A DNA stretch of 32,000 bases from an uncultured Solirubrobacterales bacterium (GCA_963795555.1 CAWCHZ010000001.1:20891-52890), one strand, 5' to 3'; counted from the first letter of the stretch, positions 7,398 through 31,332 are shown. The notes: a model not told the origin generated them from the letters alone. A program made the numbers and translations.

Positions 7398-7448
7398 CGC
7401 GGCGCGTCTCCGCGGCGCGCAGGCGGCCACCGCTCTGCCTGCGGCCGC

Positions 7449-8099
7449 TCAGCCCCAGAGCAGCCGGTTGTTCACGCGACGCCCCGAGCGCGGGACGTTC
7501 GCCTGGGTAGCGAGCGCGTCGGCATGCTGCTGGACGATCTCCAGCGTCCGCTCCAGGAAATTGCCGACGATCTGTCGCTCCTCGGCGGTCAGCTCGCGGA
7601 TGAGCTGATGATGACCGTCGATGAACGCCTCGAGCTGCTCGCAGATCGTGTGCCGAGCAGCGTCGGTGACGTTCAGCACGATGCTGCGCCGATCGCTGGG
7701 ATGGGGCTCACGCGCGACGTGCCCGGCGCGCTCGAGCCGATAGGACAACCCGGTGATCCCTCCCGAGCTGAGCCCGAGCTGCGCGCCCAGCTGGGTCGCG
7801 GTCATGCTGCCATGCGCCAGCAGCTGCTCGAGCGCGGCGATCTCGATGTCGCTGATCCCGAGCGTGGTGGCGAGCTGACCGCGCAGCTTGCCGCCGGCGA
7901 TCTGGCGGCGATTCATCAGCTCGCCAATCCGCTCCGGCGAGAACGCCGGACGGCGGCTCAGCCCGCCGCGGTCCGGAAGCGCCACCAGCCGTCCCTCGGC
8001 TCGCTCGTCGAGCCCACGCCGCCCTCCCCGTGAGCGGGTCGGGCGGGCTCGCCTACCGCCTTCGCGCGGGGCACCAGCGTCGGGTTCGATCTCGCTCAT
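7449..8099 (-). CDS. MarR-family transcriptional regulator with an Arg-rich N-terminal extension
   Basis: LGISDIEIAALEQLLAHGSMTATQLGAQLGLSSGGITGLSYRLERAGHVAREPHPSDRRSIVLNVTDAA is a MarR wHTH. The start is uncertain: ATG 8099 lacks an SD, and an in-frame GTG at 7985 is possible. Confidence 0.8.
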   Translation of the reverse strand: MSEIEPDAGAPREGGRRARPTRSRGGRRGLDERAEGRLVALPDRGGLSRRPAFSPERIGELMNRRQIAGGKLRGQLATTLGISDIEIAALEQLLAHGSMTATQLGAQLGLSSGGITGLSYRLERAGHVAREPHPSDRRSIVLNVTDAARHTICEQLEAFIDGHHQLIRELTAEERQIVGNFLERTLEIVQQHADALATQANVPRSGRRVNNRLLWG

Positions 8100-8118
8100 T
8101 GATCTGGACGCTCGGGGC

Positions 8119-8179
8119 AGAAGCTTCTCATCACTCTGCGAACGTTCAATCGGGAGTTCTCCCTATGCAGGGCCTGCAT
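8119..8179. promoter_or_regulatory. Three perfect palindromes in the 81-bp region upstream of marR and downstream of the LuxR-type gene
   Basis: AGAAGCTTCT (8119-8128), GAACGTTC (8140-8147) and ATGCAGG-G-CCTGCAT (8165-8179). The segment is locally AT-richer than its surroundings. Confidence 0.4.
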
Positions 8180-8180
8180 C

Positions 8181-16410: not shown

Positions 16411-17985
16411 TCACAGCGCTCGCCAGGCGCGTCCGTCGGCGCCGATCAGCTCATCGGCGGCGGCCGGACCATCGCTGCCTGCCTCATACGACGCAAGCTC
16501 TGGCTGACCGGAGTGCCAGGCCTCGAGGATCGGGTTGACGAGCCGCCAGGCCGCCTCGACCTCGTCGGCGCGCGTGAAGAGGGTCGGGTCGCCGACGAGC
16601 GCGTCGTGCAACAGGCGCTCGTAGGCCTCGGGCGACTCGCGCAGGAAGGCCGCGCCGTAGCTGAAGTCCATCTGCACCGGACGGATCTCCATCGTCGAGC
16701 CGGGCACCTTGGCGACCATCCGCAGGCTGACGCCCTCGTTGGGCTGGACCGAGATCAGCAGCTGGTTGGGCTCCACGACCCCCACACCCCCCGTGAAGGG
16801 CAGGTGTGGCACCGGCCGAAACGCGATCGCGATCTCGGTCGCGCGGACCTTCAGGCGCTTGCCGGTGCGCAGGTAGAAGGGCGTGCCGGCCCAGCGCCAG
16901 TTGTCCAGCTCCAGGCGCAGCGCCGCATAGGTCTCGGTCTGCGAGTCGGCTGGAACCCCCTCCTCCTCGAGATAGCCGGGCACCTGCTCGCCGGCGACCC
17001 AGCCGGCGCTGTACTGGGCGCGCACTGACGCGGTGGCGGCCTCCGCGGGCGTCCAGGGCTTGGCCGCCGAGAGCGCCTTGACCTTCTCGTCGCGGATCAG
17101 CTCGGCGCTGAAGCGCAGCGGCGGCTCCATCGCCACCAGCGAGGTGAGCTGCAGCGCGTGGTTCTGGATCACGTCGCGCAGCGCGCCAGCGTTGTCGTAG
17201 TAGCCCGCGCGATGGCCGATGCCGATGTCCTCGGCAACCGTGATCTCGACGTGGTCGATGTAGCGCCGGTTCCAGAGCGGCTCGAACAGGCCGTTGGCGA
17301 AGCGCAGCACGAGCAGGTTCTGCACCGTCTCCTTGCCGAGGTAGTGGTCGATGCGGAAGATCTGCTGCTCGTCGAAGGCGGCGCGCAGCTGGCGGTTGAG
17401 CTCGATCGCCGAGTCGAGGTCGTGCCCGAAGGGCTTTTCGACGACCAGCGCGCTGGGCGGCTCGGCGCCGGCGCCCAGCCCGACCTTGCCCAGCGCCTGG
17501 GCGATCGGCCCGAAGAACGAGGGCGCGGTCGCCAGGTAGAAGAGGCGGCGCGTCGGGCCACCAAGCCGGCGATCGCTGTCGGCCAGCTGCTCGACGAGCC
17601 GCTGGAAGGTCTCGGGGCTGTCGAAGTCGCCTCCGACCCATTCGAGCTTGGCGCGCAGCGCCCGCCAGGCGTCGGGATCGAGGCCGGTGCGCGAGAAGCG
17701 CTCGATCGAGTCCTCGACGTGGCGTCGGAACGGCTCGTGGTCGTCGGCGCGGCGGCCGACGCCGATCAGCCGGAAGCGCTCGGGCAGCTGGCCGGCGATC
17801 GCGAGGTTGTAGAACGCGGGCAGCAGCTTGCGCGCCGCCAGGTCACCGGTCGCCCCGAACAGCACCATCGTCGAGGGCGGCGGCAGTGGCTGCTGGACGT
17901 CGGCGGCGAAGGGGTTGGCCGGCGCCTCGCTGGGCGCCCTGCTGATGGTGGTGTTGGTGACGGTCGCCGCGTCGGTCGCGCTCAT
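16411..17985 (-). CDS. zwf: Glucose-6-phosphate 1-dehydrogenase
   Basis: LFGATGDLAARKLLPAFYNL (NADP-binding motif) and the RIDHYLGKE active-site signature are present. The start ATG overlaps the tal-pgi stop (ATGA at 17983-17987). Confidence 0.95.
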   Translation of the reverse strand: MSATDAATVTNTTISRAPSEAPANPFAADVQQPLPPPSTMVLFGATGDLAARKLLPAFYNLAIAGQLPERFRLIGVGRRADDHEPFRRHVEDSIERFSRTGLDPDAWRALRAKLEWVGGDFDSPETFQRLVEQLADSDRRLGGPTRRLFYLATAPSFFGPIAQALGKVGLGAGAEPPSALVVEKPFGHDLDSAIELNRQLRAAFDEQQIFRIDHYLGKETVQNLLVLRFANGLFEPLWNRRYIDHVEITVAEDIGIGHRAGYYDNAGALRDVIQNHALQLTSLVAMEPPLRFSAELIRDEKVKALSAAKPWTPAEAATASVRAQYSAGWVAGEQVPGYLEEEGVPADSQTETYAALRLELDNWRWAGTPFYLRTGKRLKVRATEIAIAFRPVPHLPFTGGVGVVEPNQLLISVQPNEGVSLRMVAKVPGSTMEIRPVQMDFSYGAAFLRESPEAYERLLHDALVGDPTLFTRADEVEAAWRLVNPILEAWHSGQPELASYEAGSDGPAAADELIGADGRAWRAL

Positions 17986-20876
17986 CAGGCGCGACCCGTG
18001 CCGTCGCCCTCGCCCGATCGCCCCTGCGCGTCGGTGCTCGCGGATTCGCCGCCGTCGCCCTCGGCGACGTCCGCCACCAGCTGCGCCAGCTGCTCGAGCG
18101 CGCGCTCGACGTCGCCGGAGAGATGCACGTGCACGGCGGGCAGGTCACGCGAGCGCAGCGCGCGCAGGTCGCCGATAGCCTGCGCGCGGATCAGCGTCGC
18201 GAAGTCATAGCCAGCGCCCGGCACCTCGACGTCGCCGCGGCCGTCGTGGGTGATCTGCAGGAAGCGCCCGCTTGGCGGGCCGCCCTTGTGCAGCTGGCCG
18301 GTGGAATGCAGGTAGCGCGGTCCATAGCCGACCGTCGTCGCGACCGCCTGGGCGTCGCGTACGCTGCGGCGCAGCCGCGTCAGCGCCCGGTCGGCGCGCG
18401 CGCTGGGGGCGATGTAGGCGAGCGTGGCGAGGTAGCTGCCAGGGCCGGTCTCATCCAGCAGCTCAGCGAGCGCCCGGGCGACCGTCGTCGGGCCGCCGTT
18501 GCGCGTCGGCCCGAGCACGCGCAGGTCGTCCTGGGTGGCGATCACCTCCTCCTCGGGCAGCCGCCCGTCGCGACGGTAGGCCTCGATGGTCTCGCTGACC
18601 AAATCCTTGGCCTCCTGCACGTTGGGCTGGTCGAAGGGGTTGATGGTGAGCACGGCGCCGGCGGTGGCGACGGCGAGCTCCCAGGTGAAGAACTGCGCGC
18701 CGAGGTCGGCGGCCTCGTCGAACGGGATGCTGATAACCGGGTGGCCGGCGTCGGCCAGCGCGGCCAGACGGCGATCGACCTCCTCGTCAGCCTGCTTGGC
18801 GTTGCGCAGGTGGACGAAGACCCGATCGGCGCCGTAGTCGGCGGGCTCGCCAAGCGGCTCGTCGGCGATCGGGACGATGCCCTTGCCCTCCTTGCCCGTG
18901 CTCTCCGCGACCAGCTGCTCGAGCCACAGCCCAAGGCTCGACAGCGGCTCCGAGACCACGAAGGTCAGCTTGTCCCGGCCATGCTGGGCCAGCGTGCCGA
19001 TCGCCAGGCCGAGCCACAGCGCGCGGTTCTGATCGCAGGCCAGCTCGGGCATCGAGCTGTGCATCGCGACCTCGGCGCTGTCGAGCAGCGCCCAGACGTT
19101 GACGCCGATCAGCGCTGCCGGCAACAGGCCGAAGTACGACAGCGCCGAGTAGCGCCCGCCGATGCCCGGGTCGTTCAGGAACGTGCGGCGAAAGCCCTCG
19201 CGCTCGGCGTGGTCGGCGAGCGCGGTGTCGGGATCGGTGATCGCGACGAAGTGCGAGCCGTCGTCGATCAGGCCGCGGAAGTAGGAGTACAGAGCGCGCG
19301 GCTCGAGCGTGCCCCCCGACTTGCTCGAAACCAGGAACAGCGTGCGCTCCAGCGTCAGGCGCTCGGCGAGGCCGGCGACCGCGTCGGGATCGGTCGAGTC
19401 GAGCACATGCAGGTCGAGGAAGCCGGGCGCGCTGCCGAAGCTGCGCCGCAGCACCAGTGGCGCGAGGCTCGATCCACCCATCCCCAAGAGGACGCAGTCG
19501 GTGAAGCCAGCCTGGCGCAGGTCGGCGGTGAAGCTGGTCAGATCGCAGAGGCGCTCGCGCATCTGCTCGGCGATCGTCAGCCAGCCGAGGCGGTTGGAGA
19601 TCTCCTCCGCCGAGGGCTTCCAGAGCGTGTGGTCGGTGCGCCAGATGCGCAGCGCCACGCGCTCGCGCTCAGCCCAGCGCACGCGCTCGCCGATCGCCTC
19701 GGCGTCCTGCTCGGCCAGGCGCGCCTCGAGGTCGGGCGGCTGACCCGACACAACCGCCTCGCGGCGCCGCTCGATGCCCGCCAGCAGCTTGTCCAGCGCC
19801 TCCGCGAAGGCGGCGATCCCGTCGACGAGCAGCTGCTCGGTGACCTCCGCGAGCGAGATGCCGGCGGCCTCGATGTCCTCGATCAGCTGGTGGGCCTCGT
19901 GCTCGCTGTCGGTCAGCTCGTCGCCCACCACACCGTGATCCTGGAAGGCCTGCAGCGTCGCCATCGGCATCGTGTTGACGACCTGCGGCCCGGCCAGCTC
20001 GGTGACGTACTTGGTGTCGGGATAGCGGGGGTCCTTGGTCGACGTCGAGGCCCACAGCAGCCGCTGCGGGCGGGCACCGTGCTCGCGCAGCGCCACGAAG
20101 CGCGGGTCGGTCAGGCTGCGCGTGAAGTGGCCGTAGGCGACCTTGGCGTTGGCGGCCGCCGCGCGCCCCAACAGGTCGTCGCGTCCCAACGCCATCAGAC
20201 GGGGGTCGATCGCGCTGTCCACGCGGGAGACGAAGAAGCTGGCGACCGAGGCGACGCGATCGATCGGCTCGCCGCGTCCGACGCGCTCCTCCAGCCCGGT
20301 CAGGTAGGCGTCGGCGACACGCAGGTAGGCGTCGACCGAGAACAGCAGCGTGATGTTGATGTTGATCCCGGCGGCGACCGAGCGGCGGATTGCCTCGACG
20401 CCCTCCGGCGTGCCGGGGATCTTGATCATCACGTTCGGGCGGTCCAGGCGCCGCCAGAGGTCGGCGGCGGCGGCGATCGTGCCCTCGGTGTCGTGCGCGA
20501 GCTCGGGCGCCACCTCGAGGCTGACATAGCCGTCGTGGCCGTCGCTGGCGTCGTAGACCGGGCGCAGCACGTCGGCCGCGCCGCGCACGTCCTCCAGCGC
20601 CAGCGTCCAGTAGATGTCCTTGACCGCGCGGCCGTCGCTGGAGAGCTCGCGCAGGCGCTCGTCGTAGTCGGGGCTGCCGAGGATCGCCTTCTCGAAGATC
20701 GATGGGTTGGACGTCACCCCGACGACGCAGTCCTCGTCGATCAGTCGCTTGAGCTCGCCGGTCTCGAGCATCGCCCGGCGAATCGAGTCGATCCAGACGC
20801 TGGTCCCCAGCGCCGACAGCGCGGCCAGAGGGCTCGTGGGGGAGGCCTGGCTGGGGTGGGTGGTGGGGGAGGTCAT
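17985..20876 (-). CDS. Bifunctional transaldolase / glucose-6-phosphate isomerase fusion
   Basis: The N-terminal ~370 aa are transaldolase-like (SVWIDSIRR...VTSNPSIFEKA...MIKIPGT). The C-terminal ~590 aa are PGI-like (LLGMGGSSLAP...GGRYSALS). It is a single 963-aa ORF. Confidence 0.9.
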   Translation of the reverse strand: MTSPTTHPSQASPTSPLAALSALGTSVWIDSIRRAMLETGELKRLIDEDCVVGVTSNPSIFEKAILGSPDYDERLRELSSDGRAVKDIYWTLALEDVRGAADVLRPVYDASDGHDGYVSLEVAPELAHDTEGTIAAAADLWRRLDRPNVMIKIPGTPEGVEAIRRSVAAGININITLLFSVDAYLRVADAYLTGLEERVGRGEPIDRVASVASFFVSRVDSAIDPRLMALGRDDLLGRAAAANAKVAYGHFTRSLTDPRFVALREHGARPQRLLWASTSTKDPRYPDTKYVTELAGPQVVNTMPMATLQAFQDHGVVGDELTDSEHEAHQLIEDIEAAGISLAEVTEQLLVDGIAAFAEALDKLLAGIERRREAVVSGQPPDLEARLAEQDAEAIGERVRWAERERVALRIWRTDHTLWKPSAEEISNRLGWLTIAEQMRERLCDLTSFTADLRQAGFTDCVLLGMGGSSLAPLVLRRSFGSAPGFLDLHVLDSTDPDAVAGLAERLTLERTLFLVSSKSGGTLEPRALYSYFRGLIDDGSHFVAITDPDTALADHAEREGFRRTFLNDPGIGGRYSALSYFGLLPAALIGVNVWALLDSAEVAMHSSMPELACDQNRALWLGLAIGTLAQHGRDKLTFVVSEPLSSLGLWLEQLVAESTGKEGKGIVPIADEPLGEPADYGADRVFVHLRNAKQADEEVDRRLAALADAGHPVISIPFDEAADLGAQFFTWELAVATAGAVLTINPFDQPNVQEAKDLVSETIEAYRRDGRLPEEEVIATQDDLRVLGPTRNGGPTTVARALAELLDETGPGSYLATLAYIAPSARADRALTRLRRSVRDAQAVATTVGYGPRYLHSTGQLHKGGPPSGRFLQITHDGRGDVEVPGAGYDFATLIRAQAIGDLRALRSRDLPAVHVHLSGDVERALEQLAQLVADVAEGDGGESASTDAQGRSGEGDGTGRA

Positions 20877-21030
20877 GCTGGCTTGCGCAGGATGGCGCGG
20901 GTCATGCTGCTGTCGGGTGTCACGCTGGCCGGCGCCAAAGGGATCCTCGGTCGGCCGCTGGGTCGGCCTCGATCACAGCGTAGTCGGTTGTGGCGCGCGG
21001 CTCGCTGGTAGAGGGGGAAATGCCGTCGTG

Positions 21031-21048
21031 TGATGTAGCATTACATCA
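21031..21048. promoter_or_regulatory. 18-bp palindrome abutting the vapB-1 start codon (candidate RHH antitoxin operator)
   Basis: TGATGTA-GCAT-TACATCA ends 2 nt before ATG 21051. There is no room for an SD. Confidence 0.5.
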
Positions 21049-21050
21049 CC

Positions 21051-21317
21051 ATGCACCGCACCCAGATCACCCTCACCGACGACCAGTACGCGCGCCTGCT
21101 GGATGAGTCCGCGCGCACCGGACGCTCGCTGGCGGCGCTGATCCGTCGGTTGCTCGACGAGCGCTACGGCCTGCTGTCGGACGCCGACCGCCTCCGGTCG
21201 CTGGAGAGCGCCTTCGGCGCCTGGGCCGGACGCGAAGAGACCAGTCAGGACTACGTCGAGCGGGTGCGATCGGGTACCGCCCGTCGGCTGGGCGCTCAGC
21301 GTGCCGGGTCTGGCTGA
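21051..21317 (+). CDS. Ribbon-helix-helix (CopG/VapB-like) antitoxin
   Basis: MHRTQITLTDDQYARLLDESARTGRSLAALIRRLLDE has the RHH beta-strand plus two-helix pattern. It overlaps the downstream PIN gene by 17 nt. Confidence 0.8.
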   Translation: MHRTQITLTDDQYARLLDESARTGRSLAALIRRLLDERYGLLSDADRLRSLESAFGAWAGREETSQDYVERVRSGTARRLGAQRAGSG

Positions 21318-21681
21318 CACCTCCGTCCTCGTCGACTACCTGCGTGGGGTTGAGCCTGCGCAAGCGCTGCTGAGATCGGCGATCGAGCGCGGTGAAGTCG
21401 TGGCGGCCTCCGCGCTCAGTCGGCTCGAGCTGATGATCGGCATGCGCCGCTCGGAGCGCCGGCGCACAAGCGCCCTGATCGCAGCGATCCGCTGGCTGGC
21501 GGTCGATGAGCGCGTCCTTGTCGAGGCGGACTCGTTGGCCCTGCGCTACGGCCCCAGTCAGTCCGGCATCGATGCCGTCGACTACTGCATCGCCGCAACG
21601 GCGCGCCTGCATCGGCTCGAGCTCTGGACCCTCAACGTCCGGCACTTTCCGATGTTCGCCGGGCTTCGGACGCCCTGGTGA
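21301..21681 (+). CDS. PIN-domain ribonuclease toxin (VapC-like)
   Basis: GTG start. LADTSVLVDYL (Asp), SRLELM (Glu) and IDAVDYCIAATA (Asp) are arranged as PIN acidic residues. Confidence 0.8.
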   Translation: MPGLADTSVLVDYLRGVEPAQALLRSAIERGEVVAASALSRLELMIGMRRSERRRTSALIAAIRWLAVDERVLVEADSLALRYGPSQSGIDAVDYCIAATARLHRLELWTLNVRHFPMFAGLRTPW

Positions 21682-21834
21682 GGATGCGCTGGCAGCCGCG
21701 GTCCTGACGATCGCCGGCAGCTCGGCCCAGCTGTCCCCCGAGCCTCAGACGCAAGCCGCTACGCCGCTGGCCCGGCGCCCGTAGCGCCCTGATCCGGCAC
21801 GCTTGCGGCAACACTCGTCGCGGCTTCGGCCGAG

Positions 21835-22317
21835 ATGAGCGCCATGGAGGGCAGTCAACTGCGTGGCGACGAGGCGATCCTGTTCGAGGCGCACCACGCT
21901 CGCCTGGCGAGCTTGCTGCGGCGGACGGTGAGGGCGTCACCGGCGGTCATCGAGGATGCCTGTGCGACCGCCTGGGAGATCTTCTTGCGCCGCCAGCCGG
22001 CGCGCGATGACATCGGCGGTTGGCTTTACGTCGTGGCCCGCCGCGAGGCGTGGCGGCTGTGCTCGCGTGAGCTGCGCACGCAGCCGCTCGAGGATCGGAG
22101 CGAGCCGGCCGGCGAGGCCGACATGGAGCTGCGCATTGCGCTCACCGACGGTCTGACGGCGATCCGGCGGCTGCCCCGGCGACGCCGCGAGGCGCTCCTC
22201 AAGCATGTCGCGGGCTTCAGCTACGCGGAGATCGGCGCCGGGCTCGGGCTGTCATGGCGCGGCGTCGACAAGCAGCTTCGCAAGGCCCGTCGCGAGCTGA
22301 AGCGCGGGGCGTGCTGA
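21835..22317 (+). CDS. ECF-type (sigma-70 family, regions 2+4) RNA polymerase sigma factor
   Basis: Region 2-like: FEAHHARLASLLRR...IEDACATAWEIFLRR...WLYVVARREAWRL. Region 4 HTH: LPRRRREALLKHVAGFSYAEIGAGLGLSWRGVDKQLRKARRELK. Confidence 0.8.
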   Translation: MSAMEGSQLRGDEAILFEAHHARLASLLRRTVRASPAVIEDACATAWEIFLRRQPARDDIGGWLYVVARREAWRLCSRELRTQPLEDRSEPAGEADMELRIALTDGLTAIRRLPRRRREALLKHVAGFSYAEIGAGLGLSWRGVDKQLRKARRELKRGAC

Positions 22318-22571
22318 CCAGCCCGGAGCTCGTGCGCCCAAACCACCGTTCTCGGCGCGGGGCCGAAGCGCCCTTTACGAATGGTCTGTACCAATCGTAC
22401 CCTCGTCCGGATTGGCGCAAATTCACTTTGCAATGATCAGGGGAGCCTGGGCATCCTGCCGCCCCCAAATCTGCGCGACATGGGAGGACAGGACGATGCA
22501 TGCGACAGCCACGGCGGCAGCGAATCGTCCGGGAGCAACAGCTGCGGCCGGGTGCTCCGAGTAGGGGATCA

Positions 22572-23921
22572 ATGGCAATCACACCCGACTCTCGCGGCAT
22601 CGCCGAGTTCGAGCGCTTCGTGCGCGCCAACGAGGCGCTGTTCCGGCGCTACGTCGCTCGCAAGCTGAGCGGGTCGCAGGTGAGCGTCGACGACACGTTG
22701 CAGGAGGGGCTGGAGCGGATCTGGAAGGCCTTCCAGAAGGCCTCCTGGCCGAGCGAGCCGGCGGCGAAGGCGCAGTTTGCCCACCAGCTGTTGAAGTGTG
22801 CCGCGATCGACGCGATCCGTGGGGTCGACGGACGCGGCGGCACGCGCCGTGGCCGCGAGATCTTGATCGACCACCGGGCGCTGGACGGAGCTCACACGCT
22901 CGATGGCGCTCACAACGACGACCACCACGGGGTTGCGGTCGCCGCGATCCATCGGATGCTCGTGCGACGCGCCGCCGAGGAACGGGACGTCGATGCCGAC
23001 GCCGCTGTGGTGCTCGGTGCGATCGCCGCGCTGACGGCCGATGAGCTGCGCATCGTCTACCTGGCGGCCGCCGGCTTCGATCACAAGGAGATCGCCGCCA
23101 GGCTGGGGCTGACGCACCAGGCCGTTCGGTCGCGCTTTGTCGTCGCACGCCAACTCGTGCGCGAGCTTGTCGCCTGCGCGTTGGGAGATCGTGCCGGCCA
23201 CGCTCATCGCCAGCGGGTGTACGACTACCTCGATGGTCGCCTCGGCGGTCGCGCCAAGCGGCTGGCGGAGCGTCATCTCCGCTGCTGCCCCTCGTGTCGG
23301 CGGAGCGTCGAGCTCGAGCGCGAAGCGGTCGAGCGCGCGACGCGGATCCTCAGCGGGCTGCCCTGGCTGGGCCCGCTTGGCCTGCTCGGATCGAGCGCGC
23401 TCGCCGGCGCCGCCGCGGCCGCGGGTGTGACCGCGGCTCCGGGCGCGGTGGCGGCTCCCGGTGCGGCTCCGGGCGCGGCGGCGGCTCCGGGAGGGGCGGC
23501 GGCCGTGGGCGGACACACCGCCGTGCTCGCCGGCGCCGGTGCGAAGCTCTGCGTCGCTGGTGCCCTGCTCGCCGCGGCAGGCCTCGCCGCTCCGCGCGTC
23601 GCGGCGGCTCTGCTGGCACGCCATCACGTCATCGGCGCGACGGCAAGGCCGGCCAGGATCGAGCGGGCGCCAGCGGCCGTCGCCCCGACCGCCGGGGCGC
23701 TCGCGGCGGCTCACGTCGCGGCGCGCTCGCCGCACGCTTGGCCGGTGCGCATTGCGCGAACGTCCGCCCGTCCGGCCGTCACCGCCGCGCACGCAGCGGC
23801 GGTTCCCAGCTCGGCGCACCCGACCCCTTCAACCAACCCCACGCAGCGCGTGTCTCCGAACACCGCGCCACGTCCAACAGCCGCCGGCGGTGCCGGTGGA
23901 GCGTTCTCACTGGGCCAATGA
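22572..23921 (+). CDS. Sigma-70/ECF-like factor fused in one polypeptide to a zinc-finger (zf-HC2/ZAS) anti-sigma motif, TM segments and an Ala/Pro-rich C-terminal tail
   Basis: SD AGGGGA (22563-22568) precedes ATG 22572. Region 2-like: FERFVRANEALFRRYV...DDTLQEGLERIWKAF...LLKCAAIDAIR. Region 4 HTH: LTADELRIVYLAAAGFDHKEIAARLGLTHQAVRSRFVVARQ. The next segment, VYDYLDGRL...AERHLRCCPSC, gives H-x3-C-x2-C at nt 23274-23297. Hydrophobic stretches lie at about nt 23350-23600. Confidence 0.65.
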   Translation: MAITPDSRGIAEFERFVRANEALFRRYVARKLSGSQVSVDDTLQEGLERIWKAFQKASWPSEPAAKAQFAHQLLKCAAIDAIRGVDGRGGTRRGREILIDHRALDGAHTLDGAHNDDHHGVAVAAIHRMLVRRAAEERDVDADAAVVLGAIAALTADELRIVYLAAAGFDHKEIAARLGLTHQAVRSRFVVARQLVRELVACALGDRAGHAHRQRVYDYLDGRLGGRAKRLAERHLRCCPSCRRSVELEREAVERATRILSGLPWLGPLGLLGSSALAGAAAAAGVTAAPGAVAAPGAAPGAAAAPGGAAAVGGHTAVLAGAGAKLCVAGALLAAAGLAAPRVAAALLARHHVIGATARPARIERAPAAVAPTAGALAAAHVAARSPHAWPVRIARTSARPAVTAAHAAAVPSSAHPTPSTNPTQRVSPNTAPRPTAAGGAGGAFSLGQ

Positions 23922-23983
23922 CCGGACCCGCGCATCCGCGGCCCGGCGCAACACCCCGTCAGTCCCGACAAAGGAGCTCCCGC

Positions 23984-26800
23984 ATGCCCTCGTCAGCCCG
24001 CTCATCGTTGACCAAGGTCACGATCGTGATCCTGCTCACGCTCGGCATCGGGCTGCACGCCCTCGGTCGCCCGGCAGACGCCCTCGCCGGCAGCTATTGG
24101 GTGCATGGCTGCGATTCGGCAGGCGGCGCGCAGAGCTCCTGGGGTGGCTTCTCGACCACCTCTGCCTATCAGGACACCGTCACCTGTCCGACCAACGGCA
24201 ACGCGCACAACGGCATCACGACCAGCGTCATCGACTCGGGGCTGGTCGGCCTGTACGCCGACGCCGGCTGGCAGGCCTCGGCGCCTTACGGCACGACGCT
24301 CAGTGCGGTGAACCTCACCTTCGCCTTCCCCTGGTATCCCTCGACGCCGGACTTCAGCTTCGGGCTCAACGCCAACAACCAGCTGATGTTCGAATGTGGT
24401 CGGAACTTCCCCGCCTGCCAGGGCTCCGGCTCCAGCCTGCTCACCCTGTCACTGCCATCTGGTACCACGGCACTCACGACGTTCGTCAGCTGCCAGCACG
24501 CCGGCGGCTGCAACACCAACACCGACGGCGGGTTCGCCGTCGCGGTCCAGTCGGCGGATGTGCAGGTGACCGACGACACGCTGCCGGTGCTGACCCACGG
24601 GCAGGGGTTGTGGGCCAACGGCGGCTGGGTGAGCGGCTCCCAGCCGGTCAGCTTCGACGCCAGCGACAACAGCGGCATCCAGGACGCGCGCATCGAGATC
24701 GATCCCGGCCCGGGCAACTACGGCAACCCGATCGATCAGCCCCACCACTGCGACTACAGCCTGATGGGACCGTGCCCCGAGCAGGGCGCGAGCGGCATCA
24801 TCGACACCACGCGCTACAGCGACGGACCCCATGTGCTCAACATCGCCGCCGAGGACGCGGCGGGCAATTGGGCCAGCACCTACAAGACGATCTACATCTC
24901 CAACATGTCACCGCCTGCGCCACAGACGCTGAACGTCATCGGCGGGCAGGGCTGGCGGCAGACCAACTCCTTCGACCTGGTTTGGCAGACGCCCGCCAGC
25001 GCCGACCAGGCGCCGCTCGCCGACCTGGACTTCCACGTCTGCAACGTGCAGACGGGAGCCTGCCGCGACTGGCAGCAGCCGGTCACCAGTCAATCGCAGA
25101 GCGAGCTCGACGGCGTCTCCACGCAGGGCAACGCCGATGAGACCTGGCAGGTCGCGCTGCAGGACGCAGCCGGCAACGTCGGTCCGTACTCCAACGCGAT
25201 TCACCTGCGCTACGACGGGACGGTGCCGGGTCACGACGCGCTGAGCTCCCGAAATGGGTGGATTTCAGCGCACGACGCCGACAGTTTTGCTCAGCAGGTC
25301 CAGATGCGGCAGACCGCGGCAGTAGGGCCTTCCGGAATTGCGGGATACGCACTCTCCGTAGACATGCAGCCGGGCGACGCCGTCACACCGGGCGCTGCGG
25401 CCGATCCAACGACGGCTCAGTGGCTCACCAACTACGCGATGAGCCTGCCTGAGGGCGTCCACACCGTGTATGCGCGAGCCATTTCCGGTGCGGGCGTGCC
25501 ATCGGACACCGTCGACAGCACGGTGGTGCAGGTCGACCGGACGCCGCCGACGGTCACCGCCACGACGGTCGACTCGGCCCGGCCCTACAACCACCCCGTC
25601 ACGATCACGATCACCGGCGCCGACCAGCCCGGCCTGTCGGGCATGGCGCCCGCGCCGGCGGGACAGCCGGTGACCAGCGGCGCCTACATCGAGTACTCGC
25701 TCGACGGTGGCGCGCCGGTCGACGTCCCGGGCGCGAGCGCCACGGTCACCGTCGGCTCGGATGGCCAGCACGCGCTCGCCTATCGCGCCTACGACCTCGC
25801 CGGCAACCCGAGCGCGATCCAGACCAACCAGCTGACGATCGACCAGACGCCACCGATCGGCGGCCTGGCCGGCATCGACGGCAACGTCGTGCGCTTCCAC
25901 ACCGCCGAGACGTGCCTGCAGTCGGCACAGATCCAGTACTCCGCCGGCGGCCAGAGCTGGACCAGCATCCAGACGACGATCGACGGCGGCGACGCCGCGG
26001 CCGCGCTGCCCGACCTCGGGCTCGACCACCCCGCGATCAGCGTGCGCGGCCTGTTCACCGACTGCGCCGGCAACAGCGCGCTGCTGGCGAACTGGCTGCC
26101 GGGCGTCGACGGCGGCGGCCCCGCGGTCGTGGTGGCGCCAAGCGACCGCCAGCCCGCGCAGCTGCGCTGGACCGTGCCGCTGCCCGCGGGCGCCGGCGCG
26201 CTCGTGCGTCGCGGCCAGCTGCTGCACGGGACGCTGCTCGACGCGGCCGGGCATCCGCTGCCCGGCGCGACGATCACGGTCAGCGTGCTGCCGCGCGACG
26301 CGACGACCTGGCTTGCCGTCGGCAGCCTGCGGACGGATGTCGGCGGTCGCTTCTCCTACGCCGTCCCGGCCGGCCCCTCGCGGACGATCCAGTTCGCCTT
26401 CGCCGGTGACGTCGCGCTGCGCCCGGCGGCCGCCGCAGTGACCGTCCGCACGCCCGCGGTGACGACGCTTGCGGCCGACTACCGCGCGATGCGCGTCGGC
26501 CAGGTCGTCACCTTCTCCGGGCGTTTGCTCGGCGGCTACGTGCCGGCGCGCGGCGCGCTCGTCGTGCTCGAGGCGTTCGACCGCGCCCACTGGGTGAAGT
26601 TCGCCACCGCACACGCCAGCTCCCGCGGGCGTTGGACCACGAGCTACCGGATCATCGCCGGCAGCGGCAGCTACGTCTATCGGATCCGCGTGCTCGTCCC
26701 GCTGCAGCAGGGCTATCCCTACCAGGCGGGCGGCTCGCGCCGCGACTACCGGCTGACCGTCTCGCCGTACGGGCCGGTCATCCGCAACCGGGGTCGTTGA
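23984..26800 (+). CDS. Secreted 938-aa protein: signal peptide, Cys-rich N-terminal domain, repeated Ig-like modules, C-terminal carboxypeptidase-regulatory-like beta-sandwiches
   Basis: SD AAGGAG (23971-23976) precedes ATG 23984. The signal peptide is MPSSARSSLTKVTIVILLTLGIGLHALGRPADALA. Modules ending in D-x-AGN recur (GPHVLNIAAEDAAGNWAS, DGQHALAYRAYDLAGNPSA, LQDAAGNVG, TDCAGNSA). The upstream part of ORF 23294 overlaps the preceding gene in another frame and was discarded. Confidence 0.7.
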   Translation: MPSSARSSLTKVTIVILLTLGIGLHALGRPADALAGSYWVHGCDSAGGAQSSWGGFSTTSAYQDTVTCPTNGNAHNGITTSVIDSGLVGLYADAGWQASAPYGTTLSAVNLTFAFPWYPSTPDFSFGLNANNQLMFECGRNFPACQGSGSSLLTLSLPSGTTALTTFVSCQHAGGCNTNTDGGFAVAVQSADVQVTDDTLPVLTHGQGLWANGGWVSGSQPVSFDASDNSGIQDARIEIDPGPGNYGNPIDQPHHCDYSLMGPCPEQGASGIIDTTRYSDGPHVLNIAAEDAAGNWASTYKTIYISNMSPPAPQTLNVIGGQGWRQTNSFDLVWQTPASADQAPLADLDFHVCNVQTGACRDWQQPVTSQSQSELDGVSTQGNADETWQVALQDAAGNVGPYSNAIHLRYDGTVPGHDALSSRNGWISAHDADSFAQQVQMRQTAAVGPSGIAGYALSVDMQPGDAVTPGAAADPTTAQWLTNYAMSLPEGVHTVYARAISGAGVPSDTVDSTVVQVDRTPPTVTATTVDSARPYNHPVTITITGADQPGLSGMAPAPAGQPVTSGAYIEYSLDGGAPVDVPGASATVTVGSDGQHALAYRAYDLAGNPSAIQTNQLTIDQTPPIGGLAGIDGNVVRFHTAETCLQSAQIQYSAGGQSWTSIQTTIDGGDAAAALPDLGLDHPAISVRGLFTDCAGNSALLANWLPGVDGGGPAVVVAPSDRQPAQLRWTVPLPAGAGALVRRGQLLHGTLLDAAGHPLPGATITVSVLPRDATTWLAVGSLRTDVGGRFSYAVPAGPSRTIQFAFAGDVALRPAAAAVTVRTPAVTTLAADYRAMRVGQVVTFSGRLLGGYVPARGALVVLEAFDRAHWVKFATAHASSRGRWTTSYRIIAGSGSYVYRIRVLVPLQQGYPYQAGGSRRDYRLTVSPYGPVIRNRGR

Positions 26801-26860
26801 GGGCGCGTACGCAGGATGGCAGATCGTCCAGACCCGCCAAGCCTGATGCTCTCACCAGGA

Positions 26861-26889
26861 CATCCGTCGAGGTCGCTGGCCATCCGTCG
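26861..26889 (+). promoter_or_regulatory. Direct repeat CATCCGTCG x2 with 20-bp periodicity upstream of the S8 protease gene
   Basis: Exact 9-mers at 26861-26869 and 26881-26889, 27 nt upstream of GTG 26916. Confidence 0.25.
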
Positions 26890-26915
26890 CGCGATCACAC
26901 CAAAATGCCCGAGCG

Positions 26916-29888
26916 GTGAGGTACCTGGATCGAATATGTGGCTTTGCCATCTTCGCGATCGTGCTTGCCCTGGCGATCGGCGTGTCGGGCCGCGTCGCCG
27001 CCGGGGCTCCAGCCGCTCAGCCGGTGGTTGGCGTGCGCCTGCGTCCTCCGGCGCTGTTTCACGCGCCACGACTGGTGCCGGGCCTGGCACGAGCTGGTCG
27101 AGTGAAGGTGCTGATCCGGCTGGCACAAGCCCCGCTCGCTCGGGCGGCGGCCGCCGCGAGCGTGCGGCGGGCGCTGGCGGGACGGCTGTCGCGATCCGAG
27201 CTGGCGTTGTTGCGCCGATCCCACGGCTGGCTTGGCACGACGGCATTCATCGCGCGCGCCAACGCGGTGGCACGGCGTCGCGCGCTGCGTGCGCTGCAGG
27301 GCGCGGCCGATCGCACGATGGTCGCGCTCGGGCGCCTCGCGCGCGACATCGCGCGGGTGGGCGGACGCGTCCTGAGCATCGACCTGCTCGGCGGGTCGCT
27401 CACGGCGACCATCCCGGCCCGGGCGCTGGCGCGGCTGGCCGCACGGCGTGATGTGGCGAGCGTCGCCCCCGCGCCGGTCATCGAGCGCTTCGACACCGGC
27501 GTGCTCGAGCAGACCGACTCGACGGGCGCCCCGGCCTGGTGGGCGGCGGGGCTCACCGGTGGCACGGGCAGCGCTGACCGCCTGCCCGCGAGCCTGGCGA
27601 TCACCGACGACAAGATCCAGGAGGACCAGCCGGCGTTCGCCGGCGTGGCGTTCGAGCGCCCGCAGGGCGAGCCGATCTACGCCGACTGCTCGAAGCTCGG
27701 ATCCGACTGCGGCCACGGCACCGAGGTCGCCGGCGCCGCGGTCAGCCAGGGCGTCGCCAGCTGCCCCACCGCGACCGGCTACACCTGCAACGCGGGCGAC
27801 GTGCAGCCGACCTGGAAGGGCGTGGCCTATGGGGTTGGCCATCTGCTGGATGCGAGTCTCGAGAGCGTCGACGCCATAACCGTAGGACGCTTCAGTGAGG
27901 CGGCATGGGAGATTGGTCTGAGCCAGACCGATCCCCAGACGGGCAACACGCTGCCCGGCGCGGCCGACCCCGCGCAGGTGCTAAACGGCAGCTGGGGCGG
28001 GACGCCTGCCAGCGATGACGACTCCTACATGGAGGCCATCGACGGGATGCTCTACGCCTACGGCCTCACGGGCGCGTGGGCGGCGGGCAACTACGGCAAG
28101 ACGACCGATCAGCTCGCCGAGCCGTGCACGGCGTACAACACGATCTGCGTCGGCGCGGTCGCCGACGCTGGCACCTCGTCGCAGGCCGACGACCAGATCG
28201 CCGACTTCTCGAGCACCGGACCGACGATCGCCGGGCGCAAGAAGCCCGACCTCGTCGCCGTTGGAGCGTCCAGCGCGCCGGAGGGCAACATCACGACGGC
28301 GCGCCAGGACTGGCAGTCCTCGAGCAGCCTGTGGCTGGCCGACAACGGCACGTCGTTCGCGACGCCACAGGTCGCCGGCGCCGCGGCGCTGCTCGTCGGC
28401 TCGGGCATCACGGACCCCAACGCGGTCAAGGCGATCCTGATCGACTCGGCGACCCCGGGCCGTGCGACGCCGTCATCGCCGGTCGGCAGCGCGCAGGGCT
28501 GGGTGCCCGGCTGGGGCTGGGGCGAGCTCGATCTCAACGCGGCGCTCGCCCAGCGCCAGGACTTCGTCACCGACAGCGTTCTCGCCTACGGCGTTCACCT
28601 CTATCGCGCCACGACCACCGCCACGGGTGATCGCGCGACGCTCGTCTGGCAGCAACGCGAGACCGATTGTCACTTCAACGCGGCCTACTGCCCGCCCGCC
28701 TACACGCTCACCCACCTGACGCTGGGGGAGTACGACGCGAGCTCCCAGCAGCTGCTCGCCTCATCCGCATCGGCGCTCGACAACGTCCAGCAGGTCCAGC
28801 ATCCCGCCGCTGCGCCGGCCAGCGAGGCGGTCGTCTATGCCGTCGCGGCGGCCTCCAGCGTCGCTGGACTGACGGCCGAGCCCTACGCGCTCGCGGCCAC
28901 CAACCAGCTCACGCCGCTGGCCAACCCCCAGCCGACGATCACGATCGCCCCGATCGGCGGCCCCTTCCGCCAGGGCCAGCCGGTGACTGTTAGGGCGACG
29001 ATCGCCAACCCCTCCGGCGACCTGACCGCCCCCGCGGTCCAGGTTACGCTGAGCGCTCCGGTCGCGGTGAACATCACCGCCGGCGCCCCGACGCAGTCAC
29101 TCGGCGACATCGCCACACACGGCAGCGCCACGGCCCGCTGGACGATCAGCGCCGGCGCCGACGGGATCTACACATTCACGATCTCGGCGAGCACGGGCCA
29201 GCTCTATGGCCAGACGTTCAGCGCCGCCGCCACGAGCGACCGCTTCCTGGTCGACTCGACGTCGCCGACCGTCGCGATCGACCGCCCCGCCGCCAGCCAG
29301 TCGGCCACGACGATCCCGGTCGGCTGGTCGGCGACCGACGCCGGCTCGGGCGTCGCTGCGTATGACGTCGACGTCGCCGTCGACGGCGGCCCCTACATCC
29401 CGTGGCTGCCAGACACGACCCTGACCTCCGCCAGCTACACCGGCGTCGACGGGCACTCCTACTCGTTTCGAGCCCGCGCGAGCGACCTGCTCGGCAACAT
29501 CTCCACCTACAGCTACGGCGGATTGGTGACGCTGATCATGCCCTCGTGTTGCGGCACCGGCTCCGGCCCGGGCGCTTCGCAGCGACCCGGCCACCATGGG
29601 GGCCTCGCCCCCCGGCTCGCGCTGACGGAGCTGCACCGGCGCGGGGCGCAGCTGGTCGTTGGTGGCACGATCGCCCGAGCCGCGACCGGCTGGGTGCAGA
29701 TCACCTGTCGCCTGCAGCTGGGACGCCAGCCGTCAACCCTGCGCCTGCGCGCGCGCGTCGTGCGCGGACGCTGGCGCCTCGTCTATCGCCTGCGCTGGCG
29801 TCACGCCCGCCTGAGCGCTGTGACGATCCGCTACCCCGGAGACCGCCGCTACGCCGCCGCGACCGCCTTCCGAGCGGTGAGCGGATGA
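26916..29888 (+). CDS. Secreted S8 subtilisin-family serine protease with an I9-like propeptide and C-terminal CARDB/Ig-like domains
   Basis: The signal peptide is (M)RYLDRICGFAIFAIVLALAIGVSGRVAAG. The catalytic triad context is LAITDD (Asp), DCGHGTEVAG (His) and DNGTSFATPQVAGAAALL (Ser). The C-terminus has VTVRATIANPSGDL (CARDB-like) and DSTSPTVAIDRP...SATDAGSGVAAYDV...DGHSYSFRARASDLLGN. Confidence 0.85.
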   Translation: MRYLDRICGFAIFAIVLALAIGVSGRVAAGAPAAQPVVGVRLRPPALFHAPRLVPGLARAGRVKVLIRLAQAPLARAAAAASVRRALAGRLSRSELALLRRSHGWLGTTAFIARANAVARRRALRALQGAADRTMVALGRLARDIARVGGRVLSIDLLGGSLTATIPARALARLAARRDVASVAPAPVIERFDTGVLEQTDSTGAPAWWAAGLTGGTGSADRLPASLAITDDKIQEDQPAFAGVAFERPQGEPIYADCSKLGSDCGHGTEVAGAAVSQGVASCPTATGYTCNAGDVQPTWKGVAYGVGHLLDASLESVDAITVGRFSEAAWEIGLSQTDPQTGNTLPGAADPAQVLNGSWGGTPASDDDSYMEAIDGMLYAYGLTGAWAAGNYGKTTDQLAEPCTAYNTICVGAVADAGTSSQADDQIADFSSTGPTIAGRKKPDLVAVGASSAPEGNITTARQDWQSSSSLWLADNGTSFATPQVAGAAALLVGSGITDPNAVKAILIDSATPGRATPSSPVGSAQGWVPGWGWGELDLNAALAQRQDFVTDSVLAYGVHLYRATTTATGDRATLVWQQRETDCHFNAAYCPPAYTLTHLTLGEYDASSQQLLASSASALDNVQQVQHPAAAPASEAVVYAVAAASSVAGLTAEPYALAATNQLTPLANPQPTITIAPIGGPFRQGQPVTVRATIANPSGDLTAPAVQVTLSAPVAVNITAGAPTQSLGDIATHGSATARWTISAGADGIYTFTISASTGQLYGQTFSAAATSDRFLVDSTSPTVAIDRPAASQSATTIPVGWSATDAGSGVAAYDVDVAVDGGPYIPWLPDTTLTSASYTGVDGHSYSFRARASDLLGNISTYSYGGLVTLIMPSCCGTGSGPGASQRPGHHGGLAPRLALTELHRRGAQLVVGGTIARAATGWVQITCRLQLGRQPSTLRLRARVVRGRWRLVYRLRWRHARLSAVTIRYPGDRRYAAATAFRAVSG

Positions 29889-29924
29889 CCACCGCCCGTC
29901 GGCATGCGTTATGATGTAGACACA

Positions 29925-30188
29925 ATGATGGTACGGACGCAGATCATGCTCGACGCCGAGGCCCATCGGCGCGCCAAGCGCCGCGCCGCCGAGCTGGGCG
30001 TGTCGCTGGCGGAATACGTGCGCCGGGCGGTCGATCGCGACCTCGGCGCCGCACCTCAGCGCAGCGATCCGAGCGCGATCTTCGGCCTCTTCGACTCGGG
30101 TGGCTCGGATGTGGCGCGCGACAAGGACCGCTACGTCGATGCGGCGATCAGCCAGGCCCATGGACGTGGCCCACGCGCGCGGCCGTGA
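29925..30188 (+). CDS. Ribbon-helix-helix (CopG/VapB-like) antitoxin, paralog of 21051..21317
   Basis: M(M)VRTQIMLDAEAHRRAKRRAAELGVSLAEYVRRAVDRDL aligns with the first antitoxin (MHRTQITLTDDQYARL...). Start at ATG 29925 or 29928; the annotated 29904 start would place the TATGAT box inside the CDS. Confidence 0.75.
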   Translation: MMVRTQIMLDAEAHRRAKRRAAELGVSLAEYVRRAVDRDLGAAPQRSDPSAIFGLFDSGGSDVARDKDRYVDAAISQAHGRGPRARP

Positions 30189-30218
30189 GCCCCCCACCGA
30201 CCCTGAATCCCACCGGTC

Positions 30219-30632
30219 GTGAGCCTGTTCGTCGACACCTCTGCCTTCTACGCGGCAGCCGACGCGGGCGACAGCAGCCACCGACAGGCCACCCGCGTGC
30301 TCGGCGAGGCCGAATCGCTCATCACCAGCGACCATGTCCTGATCGAGTCCTGGCTGCTGATGCGAGCGCGTGCCGGTCTGGGCGCGGCGCAGCGCTTCTG
30401 GCAGGCGATTCGTGGCGGCCTGGCCAGCGTCGAGACCGTTCTGCCGACCGACCTCGACCGCGCATGGCTGATCGGCGAGGAATTTCCCGATCAGGGCTTC
30501 TCGATCGTCGATCGCACGAGCTTTGCCGTGATGGAGCGCCTCGGCCTGACCGCGGTCGCGAGCTTCGACGATCACTTCGCGGTCTACCGCTTCGGCGCGC
30601 GGCGCGAGCGCGCGTTCGAGCTGCTGCGTTGA
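30219..30632 (+). CDS. PIN-domain ribonuclease toxin (VapC-like)
   Basis: GTG start. SLFVDTSAFYA (Asp), HVLIESW (Glu), FSIVDRTSFAVM (Asp) and ASFDDHF (Asp). Confidence 0.8.
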   Translation: MSLFVDTSAFYAAADAGDSSHRQATRVLGEAESLITSDHVLIESWLLMRARAGLGAAQRFWQAIRGGLASVETVLPTDLDRAWLIGEEFPDQGFSIVDRTSFAVMERLGLTAVASFDDHFAVYRFGARRERAFELLR

Positions 30633-30747
30633 CGGCATTTCACGCCGCGGCGCGCTGACGGCTGTGTTCGCGCTCCGGCGCTGATCGTTCCGCAGCCACG
30701 GCTGGCAGCCGACAACACCGCGCGGCGCTGCTGCCGAGATAGGGCAT

Positions 30748-31332
30748 ATGGGACCGCCCATGCGACGCCGCGATGTGCGCCAGGCTCTGGCGCTGGGAGC
30801 CTTCGCTGCGCTGCTCGCGTTCCATCTCGTCGGCTGCGCCATGCCGGCATCCCCCTGGCCGGCTGGCGCGCCGACGGCTCCCTCGCGTGGAGCCGGCCTC
30901 GCTGCTCGCGCGAGCGCAACCGGCGCTGCCCCTGATCCACGCTTGACGCCCGGCGCGATCTTCCCCAATGCCTCCACCGCGCTCGTCTGCCGGCGCGGTT
31001 ATGCCCGCGGCGTGCGCGATCGGCTCAACTCGGCACAGTGGATCGCGCTCAAGCGCCAGGTCTATGCGCGCTACGGCATCGCCAGCCACGCGCCCGGCGC
31101 ATATGAGGTCGATCACCGCGAGCCGCTGGCGCTCGGGGGCACGAACTCCATCCCCAACCTCTGGCCCCAGCCGATCGAGCAGGCCCGCGAGAAGGACGGC
31201 CTGGAAGCCTGGGCGCACGACCGCGTCTGCGCGGGACGCCTCTCCCTTCGCGCCGCCCAGGTGCAGCTGCTCGACTGGTATCCGGCGTGGCTGGCCGCCG
31301 GACGGCCACGCGCGTGGGGGGCATTCGACTAG
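30748..31332 (+). CDS. Putative lipoprotein with an HNH-type nuclease motif
   Basis: The signal/lipobox is ALGAFAALLAFHLVGC. YEVDHREPLALGGTNSIPNLWPQP resembles the HNH (D-H...N...N) core. An alternative start lies at ATG 30760. Confidence 0.55.
   Translation: MGPPMRRRDVRQALALGAFAALLAFHLVGCAMPASPWPAGAPTAPSRGAGLAARASATGAAPDPRLTPGAIFPNASTALVCRRGYARGVRDRLNSAQWIALKRQVYARYGIASHAPGAYEVDHREPLALGGTNSIPNLWPQPIEQAREKDGLEAWAHDRVCAGRLSLRAAQVQLLDWYPAWLAAGRPRAWGAFD

Follow-up and report, generated by a model that had tools for sequence, protein, structure and literature searches.

A sigma/anti-sigma fusion and the separately encoded secreted protein paired with it in soil Actinomycetota

INTRODUCTION

Several groups of actinobacterial extracytoplasmic function (ECF) sigma factors carry their anti-sigma domain within the same polypeptide. 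In ECF48, ECF52, and ECF53, the sigma core is fused to a zinc-binding anti-sigma (ZAS) zinc finger and to one or two transmembrane (TM) helices, and release by proteolysis has been proposed and is unproven (PMC8999054, PMC5826349, PMC7826278). Sigma/anti-sigma fusions form “one-component” transmembrane regulators, the input signals of which are essentially unknown; a single ECF52 member has been studied, and neither its activating protease nor its ligand has been identified. Here we describe a fusion of this general type, G2, and the secreted protein encoded directly after it, G3. Both are encoded on a stretch of 32,000 nucleotides (nt) from an uncultured Solirubrobacterales bacterium (GCA_963795555.1, CAWCHZ010000001.1:20891-52890), here called the window. 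They lie in a block of four genes (G1 to G4), within which the pair G2-G3 is the conserved element.

The nearest known kind of protein is the ECF52-type fusion, represented by SCO4117 of Streptomyces coelicolor, which was reported to be positively autoregulated (PMC5826349). Like G2, it is actinobacterial and joins an ECF core, a zf-HC2 domain, and a TM segment in one polypeptide; it has, in addition, a Pro-rich extracytoplasmic extension and a proposed proteolytic activation (PMC5826349, PMC8999054). However, ECF52 ends in a carbohydrate-binding NPCBM domain, whereas neither G2 nor its family has one, the family ending instead in the peptide EFGP-COOH. A further difference is that the G2 family has a separate secreted protein of several immunoglobulin (Ig)-like domains, with a signal peptide of its own, encoded next to it, so that a product of a second gene stands in place of the external sensor domain of the ECF52 type. 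The nearest precedent for this split arrangement is the ECF52 orthologue of Streptomyces clavuligerus, in which a stop codon is reported to detach the carbohydrate-binding module (CBM)/sensor domain (PMC5826349). ECF48 and ECF53 have the same general architecture and predicted proteolytic activation as G2 (PMC8999054), but the descriptions consulted mention neither a conserved secreted partner gene nor a C-terminal motif.

More distant systems share single features with G2. IutY of Pseudomonas putida (ECF243) is also a membrane-spanning sigma/anti-sigma fusion that receives its signal from an external partner, and its processing by Prc and then RseP has been shown (PMC8999054). It differs in belonging to Gram-negative cell-surface signaling, where its anti-sigma domain is of the FecR type and its partner is a TonB-dependent receptor, and in having no ZAS, Ig-like partner, or S8 protease. 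In the classical ZAS pairs SigR-RsrA, SigL-RslA, and SigW-RsiW, an anti-sigma domain with the H-x3-C-x2-C motif binds sigma2 and sigma4, and the G2 model resembles these sigma factors; RsiW-type factors are membrane bound and are removed by regulated proteolysis. In all three systems, sigma and anti-sigma are separate proteins, whereas in G2 they are covalently joined. We found no description in the literature of a sigma-ZAS-TM fusion paired with a separate secreted protein and no mention of the EFGP motif. The initial annotation of this locus, a reading of the sequence alone, had not recognized the block as a described system; the sigma-ZAS-TM class is in fact already described, and it is the pairing with a secreted protein for which we found no description.

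RESULTS AND DISCUSSION

The conserved unit is a pair of genes

The block consists of the following genes:

21835-22317, plus strand: G1, a free ECF-like sigma factor of 160 amino acids
22572-23921, plus strand: G2, a single-polypeptide ECF sigma/ZAS anti-sigma/TM/extracytoplasmic tail protein of 449 amino acids
23984-26800, plus strand: G3, a secreted all-beta multidomain protein of 938 amino acids
26916-29888, plus strand: G4, a secreted S8 subtilase of 990 amino acids

The window sequence is 71% GC, and third-position GC bias marks G1 to G4 as coding (GC3 of 0.88, 0.82, 0.90, and 0.89, respectively). All four of the co-directional genes that had been annotated (free sigma, fused sigma, secreted protein, and S8 protease) were found, with GC3 in the range of 0.82 to 0.90. 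They are separated by gaps of 254 nt (G1-G2), 62 nt (G2-G3), and 115 nt (G3-G4); a PIN-domain gene ends 153 nt before G1, and a ribbon-helix-helix (RHH) gene begins 15 nt after G4.

The neighborhoods of homologous genes were compared from both sides of the pair. The G3-centered scan used one genome per species and gave 62 loci, almost all from Thermoleophilia, 59 of which were evaluable; neighbors were identified with our own gene calls and clustering, plus a fused-sigma hidden Markov model (HMM) run on six-frame translations. Metagenome-assembled genomes of Solirubrobacterales/Thermoleophilia were the closest relatives. A full-length sigma-ZAS-TM gene lies directly upstream of the G3 homologue, and co-directional with it, at 28 of the 59 loci, and a few more have fragmentary copies. 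The reciprocal scan, in which the fused-sigma alignment was used to search metagenomes, returned at least 338 relatives, from which 80 loci were kept; 55 of these had at least 600 nt of downstream sequence. A G3-family gene follows the sigma gene directly at 44 of these 55 loci (34 of 43 once the sigma sequences are clustered at 70% identity). At the long-flank exceptions without G3, the sigma gene is followed directly by a small gene that elsewhere follows G3, which indicates that this locus once had G3 and lost it by deletion.

The conserved unit is thus the pair of a G2-type and a G3-type gene, recurrent in many soil Actinomycetota, to which only a few lineages have added the protease and the second sigma factor. 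The initial annotation had treated all four genes as one candidate module; the neighborhood comparison upholds the pairing of G2 with G3 (28/59 and, reciprocally, 44/55) and does not extend to G1 or G4. What merits attention is this conserved pairing, together with the motif at the end of the sigma factor; the four-gene set as such is a lineage-specific elaboration.

The sigma-G3 junction and the C-terminal motif

At 65 of 90 complete junctions, the stop codon of the sigma gene overlaps the start codon of the G3 gene (ATGA/GTGA), and the ribosome-binding site GGGGAG precedes it by 8 nt, indicating translational coupling. The terminus of the fused sigma factors is near-invariant: of 90 proteins, 88 contain EF within the last 8 residues, and 69 end in EF[GAR]P. 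G2 of the window is one of only two without EF and ends in GGAFSLGQ (GAFSLGQ at 23898-23918), a degenerate copy of EFGP-COOH.

The EFGP motif looks to be under protein-level selection. The codons for its Gly and Pro residues differ synonymously while the amino acids remain constant, and the motif persists both where G3 has a separate, distant Shine-Dalgarno (SD) sequence and start (L004, L017, and L020) and at loci that have lost G3 (L075, L145, L074, L119, and L125); in addition, 13 of the 90 tails contain extra internal copies. These features argue for selection on the peptide and, equally, against the alternative that EFGP has no peptide function and is a by-product of nucleotide constraint from the GGGGAG ribosome-binding site, the TTCGGNCC spacer, and the (A/G)TGA overlap. 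In favor of such a by-product, the codons of the motif match the SD sequence, the spacer, and the G3 start exactly in the 65 overlapping junctions. Nevertheless, the Phe is invariant, although spacers need no set sequence, and we regard this explanation as improbable.

Architecture of the fused sigma factor

The following features were located in G2:

22590-23183, plus strand: sigma core, with sigma2 (residues 7-85), a disordered linker, and sigma4 (residues 117-204); from Pfam, with predicted local distance difference test (pLDDT) scores of >90 for both domains
23199-23354, plus strand: ZAS helices (residues 210-261); from zf-HC2, with pLDDT of about 90
23274-23297, plus strand: H235-x3-C239-x2-C242 (HLRCCPSC motif)
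23517-23618, plus strand: predicted TM helix (residues 316-349), with Kyte-Doolittle values of up to 1.86 in a 19-residue window
23619-23918, plus strand: extracytoplasmic tail of about 100 residues, Ala/Pro-rich and disordered (pLDDT <50)

The sigma domains were recognized with Pfam (Sigma70_r2, 2.6e-5; Sigma70_r4_2, 1.1e-5) and with TIGR02937, which scored above its cut-off (45.2 versus 42.9 bits), as did zf-HC2 (1.6e-6; 28.5 versus 22.2 bits); the fused-sigma family HMM gives G2 275 bits. Across 22 family members, Pfam detects Sigma70_r4_2 in 18, Sigma70_r2 in 17, and zf-HC2 in 13. The AlphaFold2 (AF2) model is confident for sigma2, sigma4 (pLDDT >90 for these two), and the ZAS helices, with the remainder disordered, and Foldseek returned ECF sigma factors as the best matches, for example, SigH and SigL of Mycobacterium tuberculosis. 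The model places the membrane helix at residues 317-350, and in the family alignment this segment falls on the shared hydrophobic block. The sigma and ZAS assignments of the initial annotation are therefore borne out by Pfam, whereas its plural TM segments reduce to one convincing helix.

No domain was found beyond the TM helix, either in G2 (Pfam and the AF2 model) or in the 22 family members (Pfam). The tail of G2 is rich in Ala and contains 15 Pro among 149 residues; the tails of most family members are clearly Pro-rich. Alignment of the fused-sigma family profile with a Streptomyces sigma+NPCBM protein (hhalign E value of 1e-19; probability of 99.2%) covers the sigma and ZAS region at 18% identity, which shows homology to an ECF52-like protein and leaves membership in the same ECF group unproven. 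The Streptomyces relatives P0078, P0080, P0086, and P0087 carry PF08305 (NPCBM). The sigma, ZAS, and TM features of G2 fit ECF52, but because it has no C-terminal carbohydrate-binding domain, we do not file it there.

Two apparent sigma-G3 fusions, which would have linked the two proteins in the manner of Rosetta-stone sequences, were rejected. P0038 (1,552 amino acids; zf-HC2 plus Big_13) and an open reading frame (ORF) of L036 (1,157 amino acids) represent out-of-frame, Arg-rich run-through in which the G3 signal peptide is retained. More generally, the very long ORFs in the family (P0038; L036, 8636-12109; L004, 695-3937; L011, 9323-12697) would suggest such fusions or G3 proteins extended at the N terminus, but they arise from run-through, or from reading out of frame, in the part that encodes the Pro-rich tail. 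Database gene calls are unreliable at these long ORFs because the tail region has few stop codons at such GC.

G3, G4, and the domains that they share

G3 has a signal peptide followed by an N-terminal domain (about residues 36-205) without a Pfam match, a chain of Ig/fibronectin type III (FnIII)-like domains, and two basic CarboxypepD_reg-like domains (residues 725-938). Pfam reports Big_13 and CarboxypepD_reg, and NCBIfam reports an OmpL47-type beta-barrel domain (1.3e-10). The AF2 model (pLDDT of 84.7) is an all-beta chain of beta-sandwich domains, for which Foldseek found only generic chains of the Ig, FnIII, or macroglobulin (MG) type. The protein had been annotated as Cys-rich, a description that does not fit its 12 Cys in 938 residues, although some of these are conserved. 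Its family comprises 299 representative clusters at an E value of ≤1e-30 and is uncharacterized; no plasmid homologues of G3 were found. Translation of G3 in the window can be assigned to the ATG at 23984, with the SD sequence AAAGGAG 7 nt before it. An alternative in-frame ATG at 23918, 66 nt upstream of that start, overlaps the stop codon of G2 (ATGA) and mirrors the overlap seen in most family members, so that G3 may have two possible starts.

G4 is a subtilase with a signal peptide, a basic N-terminal region, and two mapped domains:

27594-28469, plus strand: catalytic domain (residues 227-518)
28923-29885, plus strand: C-terminal beta-sandwich array (residues 670-990), homologous to residues 528-823 of G3

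The Peptidase_S8 (PF00082) match is strong (3e-27; 96.1 bits versus a cut-off of 21.8), and the triad D232, H267, and S480 is invariant across four family members; the oxyanion residue, N357, was read from the sequence. Further domain matches are Big_7 (5e-5) and NPCBM_assoc (1.4e-3). Solved subtilases are only distantly related to G4.

The claim that G3 and G4 share the same Ig-like module finds no support in BLASTP, where the match is not significant (E value of 0.056), but it does in profile-to-profile comparison, in which residues 528-823 of G3 align with residues 695-990 of G4 (hhalign probability of 88%; E value of 3e-6). Both proteins combine an acidic body (isoelectric point [pI] of about 4) with very basic C-terminal domains (pI of 11.4 to 12; the last 115 amino acids of G4 have a pI of 12). 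These basic domains are therefore read as a putative common module that may anchor both proteins to the envelope.

A G4-type subtilase gene directly follows G3 in four lineages only: the window, L002, L008, where the contig begins at G3, and L009. L002, a metagenome-assembled genome of Solirubrobacteraceae, is the sole other genome with all four orthologues, which are 28 to 45% identical to those of the window and are arranged in a different order. A second, shorter S8 lineage of the Solirubrobacter type is located between split G3 genes at L042, L045, and L056 (intact) and L058 (fragments), and other S8 genes lie 2 to 6 kb away at seven further loci. L042 is from Solirubrobacter soli DSM 22325, and its gene order is sigma, part of G3, S8, and part of G3.

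The free sigma factor and the flanking genes

G1 scores above the Pfam cut-offs for Sigma70_r4_2 (5e-10; 39.3 versus 25.7) and Sigma70_ECF (2.7e-5; 24.6 versus 21.1) and narrowly below those for Sigma70_r2 (1e-4; 22.3 versus 24) and the NCBIfam sigma70-ECF model TIGR02937 (40.7 versus 42.9 bits). The fused-sigma family HMM matches it with 43 bits over model positions 25-178. Its sole clear orthologue is in L002 (39% identity), where it is found downstream of the protease, past a divergent helix-turn-helix (HTH) gene. G1 is thus a free paralogue of the sigma domain and a lineage-specific addition.

Toxin-antitoxin (TA)-like gene pairs flank the block on both sides:

21051-21317, plus strand: upstream RHH antitoxin-like gene (Pfam RHH_1, 1.2e-5), overlapping the PIN gene by 17 nt
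21301-21681, plus strand: upstream PIN (VapC-like) toxin gene (Pfam PIN, 6e-13; NCBIfam TA_toxin_VapC, 4e-8, below its cut-off)
29904-30188, plus strand: downstream RHH-like antitoxin gene, weakly supported (FitA-like RHH, 1.9e-3; VapB, 3.4e-3)
30219-30632, plus strand: downstream PIN toxin gene (Pfam PIN, 2e-12)

The order of each pair, with a small RHH gene immediately upstream of a PIN gene, would fit the VapBC type. The two pairs do bracket the block, as the initial annotation had noted, but the close paralogy that it assumed does not hold: the PIN proteins match each other with an E value of 0.26 and the RHH proteins with an E value of 0.001 over 40 amino acids, so that the pairs belong only to the same broad families. 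We consider them flanking cargo unrelated to the block. The 15 nt between the stop codon of G4 and the downstream RHH gene contain no terminator-like site, and the downstream pair may therefore be cotranscribed with the protease.

In L002 (positions 1-8400), the block comes directly after genes for Replic_Relax, a VirB4-like AAA_10 protein, a hydrolase with SLT/M23/CHAP domains, and a coupling protein similar to TrwB; a gene for a LexA-like repressor follows. These conjugation-type neighbors suggest carriage on an integrative conjugative element.

Proposed mechanism and alternative explanations

Starting from the observed domain content, conserved pairing, stop/start overlap, terminal motif, and shared G3/G4 domains, we propose that G2 and G3 constitute a two-gene signaling unit in which secreted G3 is the partner of the fused sigma factor's tail and activation occurs by cleavage, a reading to which we give about even weight. 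The ZAS domain and the single membrane helix of G2 would together keep its sigma core inactive and membrane bound, with about 100 disordered residues outside. G3, probably retained at the envelope through its two strongly basic C-terminal domains, would read or shield the external sigma tail that ends in EFGP-COOH, by way of a presumed G2-G3 contact. Activation could then follow the course that has been proposed for ECF52 and demonstrated for IutY, with an external cleavage followed by an intramembrane cleavage that would free the sigma factor to the cytoplasm, where it may transcribe its own operon and, with it, G3. The unit has diverged in the lineage of the window, with a degenerate motif, a 62-nt G2-G3 gap that includes a separate ribosome-binding site, and the addition of G4, a protease that most likely works at the cell surface, on G3 or next to it, and that may provide the first cleavage, its substrate being conjectural.

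Extended to the whole family, the proposal would be that an undescribed family of sigma factors signals via EFGP-COOH, which is read or shielded by a coupled, envelope-anchored G3, and that in a few lineages the peptide became degenerate and a subtilase sharing the anchoring domains took over the first cleavage. In this full form, it is tentative and, we judge, doubtful. A fixed external peptide and a coupled secreted partner offer a testable handle on how such sigma factors are activated and on what they sense. Thermoleophilia, like other soil Actinomycetota, commonly have members of the family, and the cultured Solirubrobacter species that carry it are a possible model.

Several observations weigh against the two-gene signaling unit or against its extension to the whole block. 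About half of the G3 homologues occur without the sigma gene, either after a DUF1360 gene or in lpd/pyruvate dehydrogenase (PDH) synteny; several sigma loci have lost G3; and P0002, the closest homologue of G2, has neither G3 nor an S8 gene alongside. The window itself shows neither the canonical motif nor the overlap, its G3 having a ribosome-binding site of its own across the 62-nt gap, and the codons for EFGP coincide with the G3 ribosome-binding region, so that their conservation could be partly at the nucleotide level. G1 is conserved in just one other genome (L002), and no shared ECF-type promoter could be demonstrated upstream of G1, G2, G3, and G4. With regard to the protease, the association with S8 holds for a minority of G3 loci, and at L009 the G3-S8 pair has no sigma gene within 10 kb upstream, which ties the protease to G3 rather than to the sigma factor; G4 therefore need not act on G2.

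Some of these observations would be expected if G2 were self-contained and sensed by other means (for example, with its tail, through the membrane, or by redox at the ZAS domain), with G3, alone or together with G4, being simply the first genes of its regulon and exerting no feedback. ECF sigma factors often autoregulate and are cotranscribed with their targets, as with the reported positive autoregulation of SCO4117 (PMC5826349), and an operon-like order with translational coupling would suit such an output; G3 also has no recognizable ligand-binding or enzymatic domain, many of its homologues have no sigma gene, and sigma factors without G3 retain the motif. On the other hand, proteins that are produced in a fixed ratio typically have such a tight 4-nt overlap of stop and start (a heuristic rather than proof), and a near-invariant extracytoplasmic C-terminal peptide needs a conserved reader, for which G3 is the sole co-conserved extracytoplasmic protein. 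We therefore see a pure output role for G3 as possible but rather unlikely. A similarly low probability applies to the explanation that only G2 and G3 belong together, G1, G4, and the TA pairs being cargo that came to share one horizontally acquired stretch with them by chance. The four-gene set recurs, reordered, in only one other genome, where it is beside conjugation-type genes; in the window it is bracketed by TA pairs, with housekeeping genes on either side (tal-pgi, zwf, and opcA upstream; GNAT downstream), and most G3 loci have no G4-type S8 gene. The initial annotation had allowed that the genes could simply be neighbors, and for G1, G4, and the TA pairs this may be the case; only the G2-G3 pairing is widely conserved. 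However, G3 and G4 have homologous C-terminal domain arrays, two distinct S8 lineages have independently come to adjoin G3-type genes, and the 28 to 45% identity between the four orthologues of the window and of L002 implies long co-retention. Furthermore, no att sites or flanking direct repeats, tRNA, integrase, or GC shift was found in the window.

The flanking TA pairs and weak matches of G4 to the anti-phage S8 families IetS/IteS raise the question of an anti-phage or conflict system that joins TA modules with a protease. Those matches reach 35.7 bits against a cut-off of 900 and cover the generic catalytic core only; in PADLOC, the matches of G4 are weak and G1, G2, and G3 have none, the signal peptide of G4 would place its activity outside the cell, and the IetA-type ATPase partner is absent. 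We consider such a function highly improbable, and the identification of the block as a defense system was dismissed on the PADLOC and NCBIfam results.

Intergenic signals and other observations

When bipartite k-mers were enumerated upstream of 94 fused-sigma genes, most of the signal came from a divergent epimerase gene and its coding sequence. The true intergenic region upstream of the c4-type fused-sigma genes has a conserved footprint (GCAAAT...CGTCC...GGGGGGAGA...ATGTTCGG). The corresponding pattern GCAAWT-N14-18-CGTC was not found in the window, where a lone GCAAAT at 22417-22422, about 150 nt upstream of G2, is not significant by itself. Neither sigma-70-like promoters nor terminator-like sites were found in 20800-30900. 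Exactly two copies of GCAACAC-N1-2-CGTC are present in the whole 32 kb of the window, at 21808-21819, ending 15 nt ahead of the G1 start, and at 23948-23960, just before the SD sequence of G3. Shuffled sequences contained a mean of 0.12 copies, and none had 2, a statistic that is inflated because the two sites themselves served, post hoc, to define the pattern.

Many of the fused-sigma/G3 pairs (L066-L145, L028, L030, and L048, among others) share one chromosomal site, with a divergent gene for an NAD-dependent sugar epimerase/decarboxylase-like protein and with sugar-phosphate transferase and methyltransferase genes nearby. The setting may point to a connection with the synthesis of envelope glycans. 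In one synteny group (L004, L007, L011, L020, L074, L075, L119, L125, L143, and L145), a conserved protein of 151 to 175 amino acids (MPLCFIEPQDAIRV...) is encoded after G3 or, at loci that lack G3, directly after the sigma gene. Full-length G3 genes have another recurrent neighbor at L005, L006, L016, L018, L147, and L148, where the gene immediately upstream encodes a small membrane protein (DUF1360); a divergent Zincin_2 gene is also present, and there is no sigma gene.

Two further genes of the window, both on the minus strand, have unusual domain combinations. The first (17985-20876), which adjoins zwf and opcA, is a single 963-amino-acid ORF that joins transaldolase (TAL_FSA, 2.5e-80) to phosphoglucose isomerase (PGI, 2.4e-13). 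The second (8181-9959) encodes a protein of 592 amino acids in which an HD_5/HD domain (1e-36) is fused to a LuxR-type GerE HTH domain (1.9e-16).

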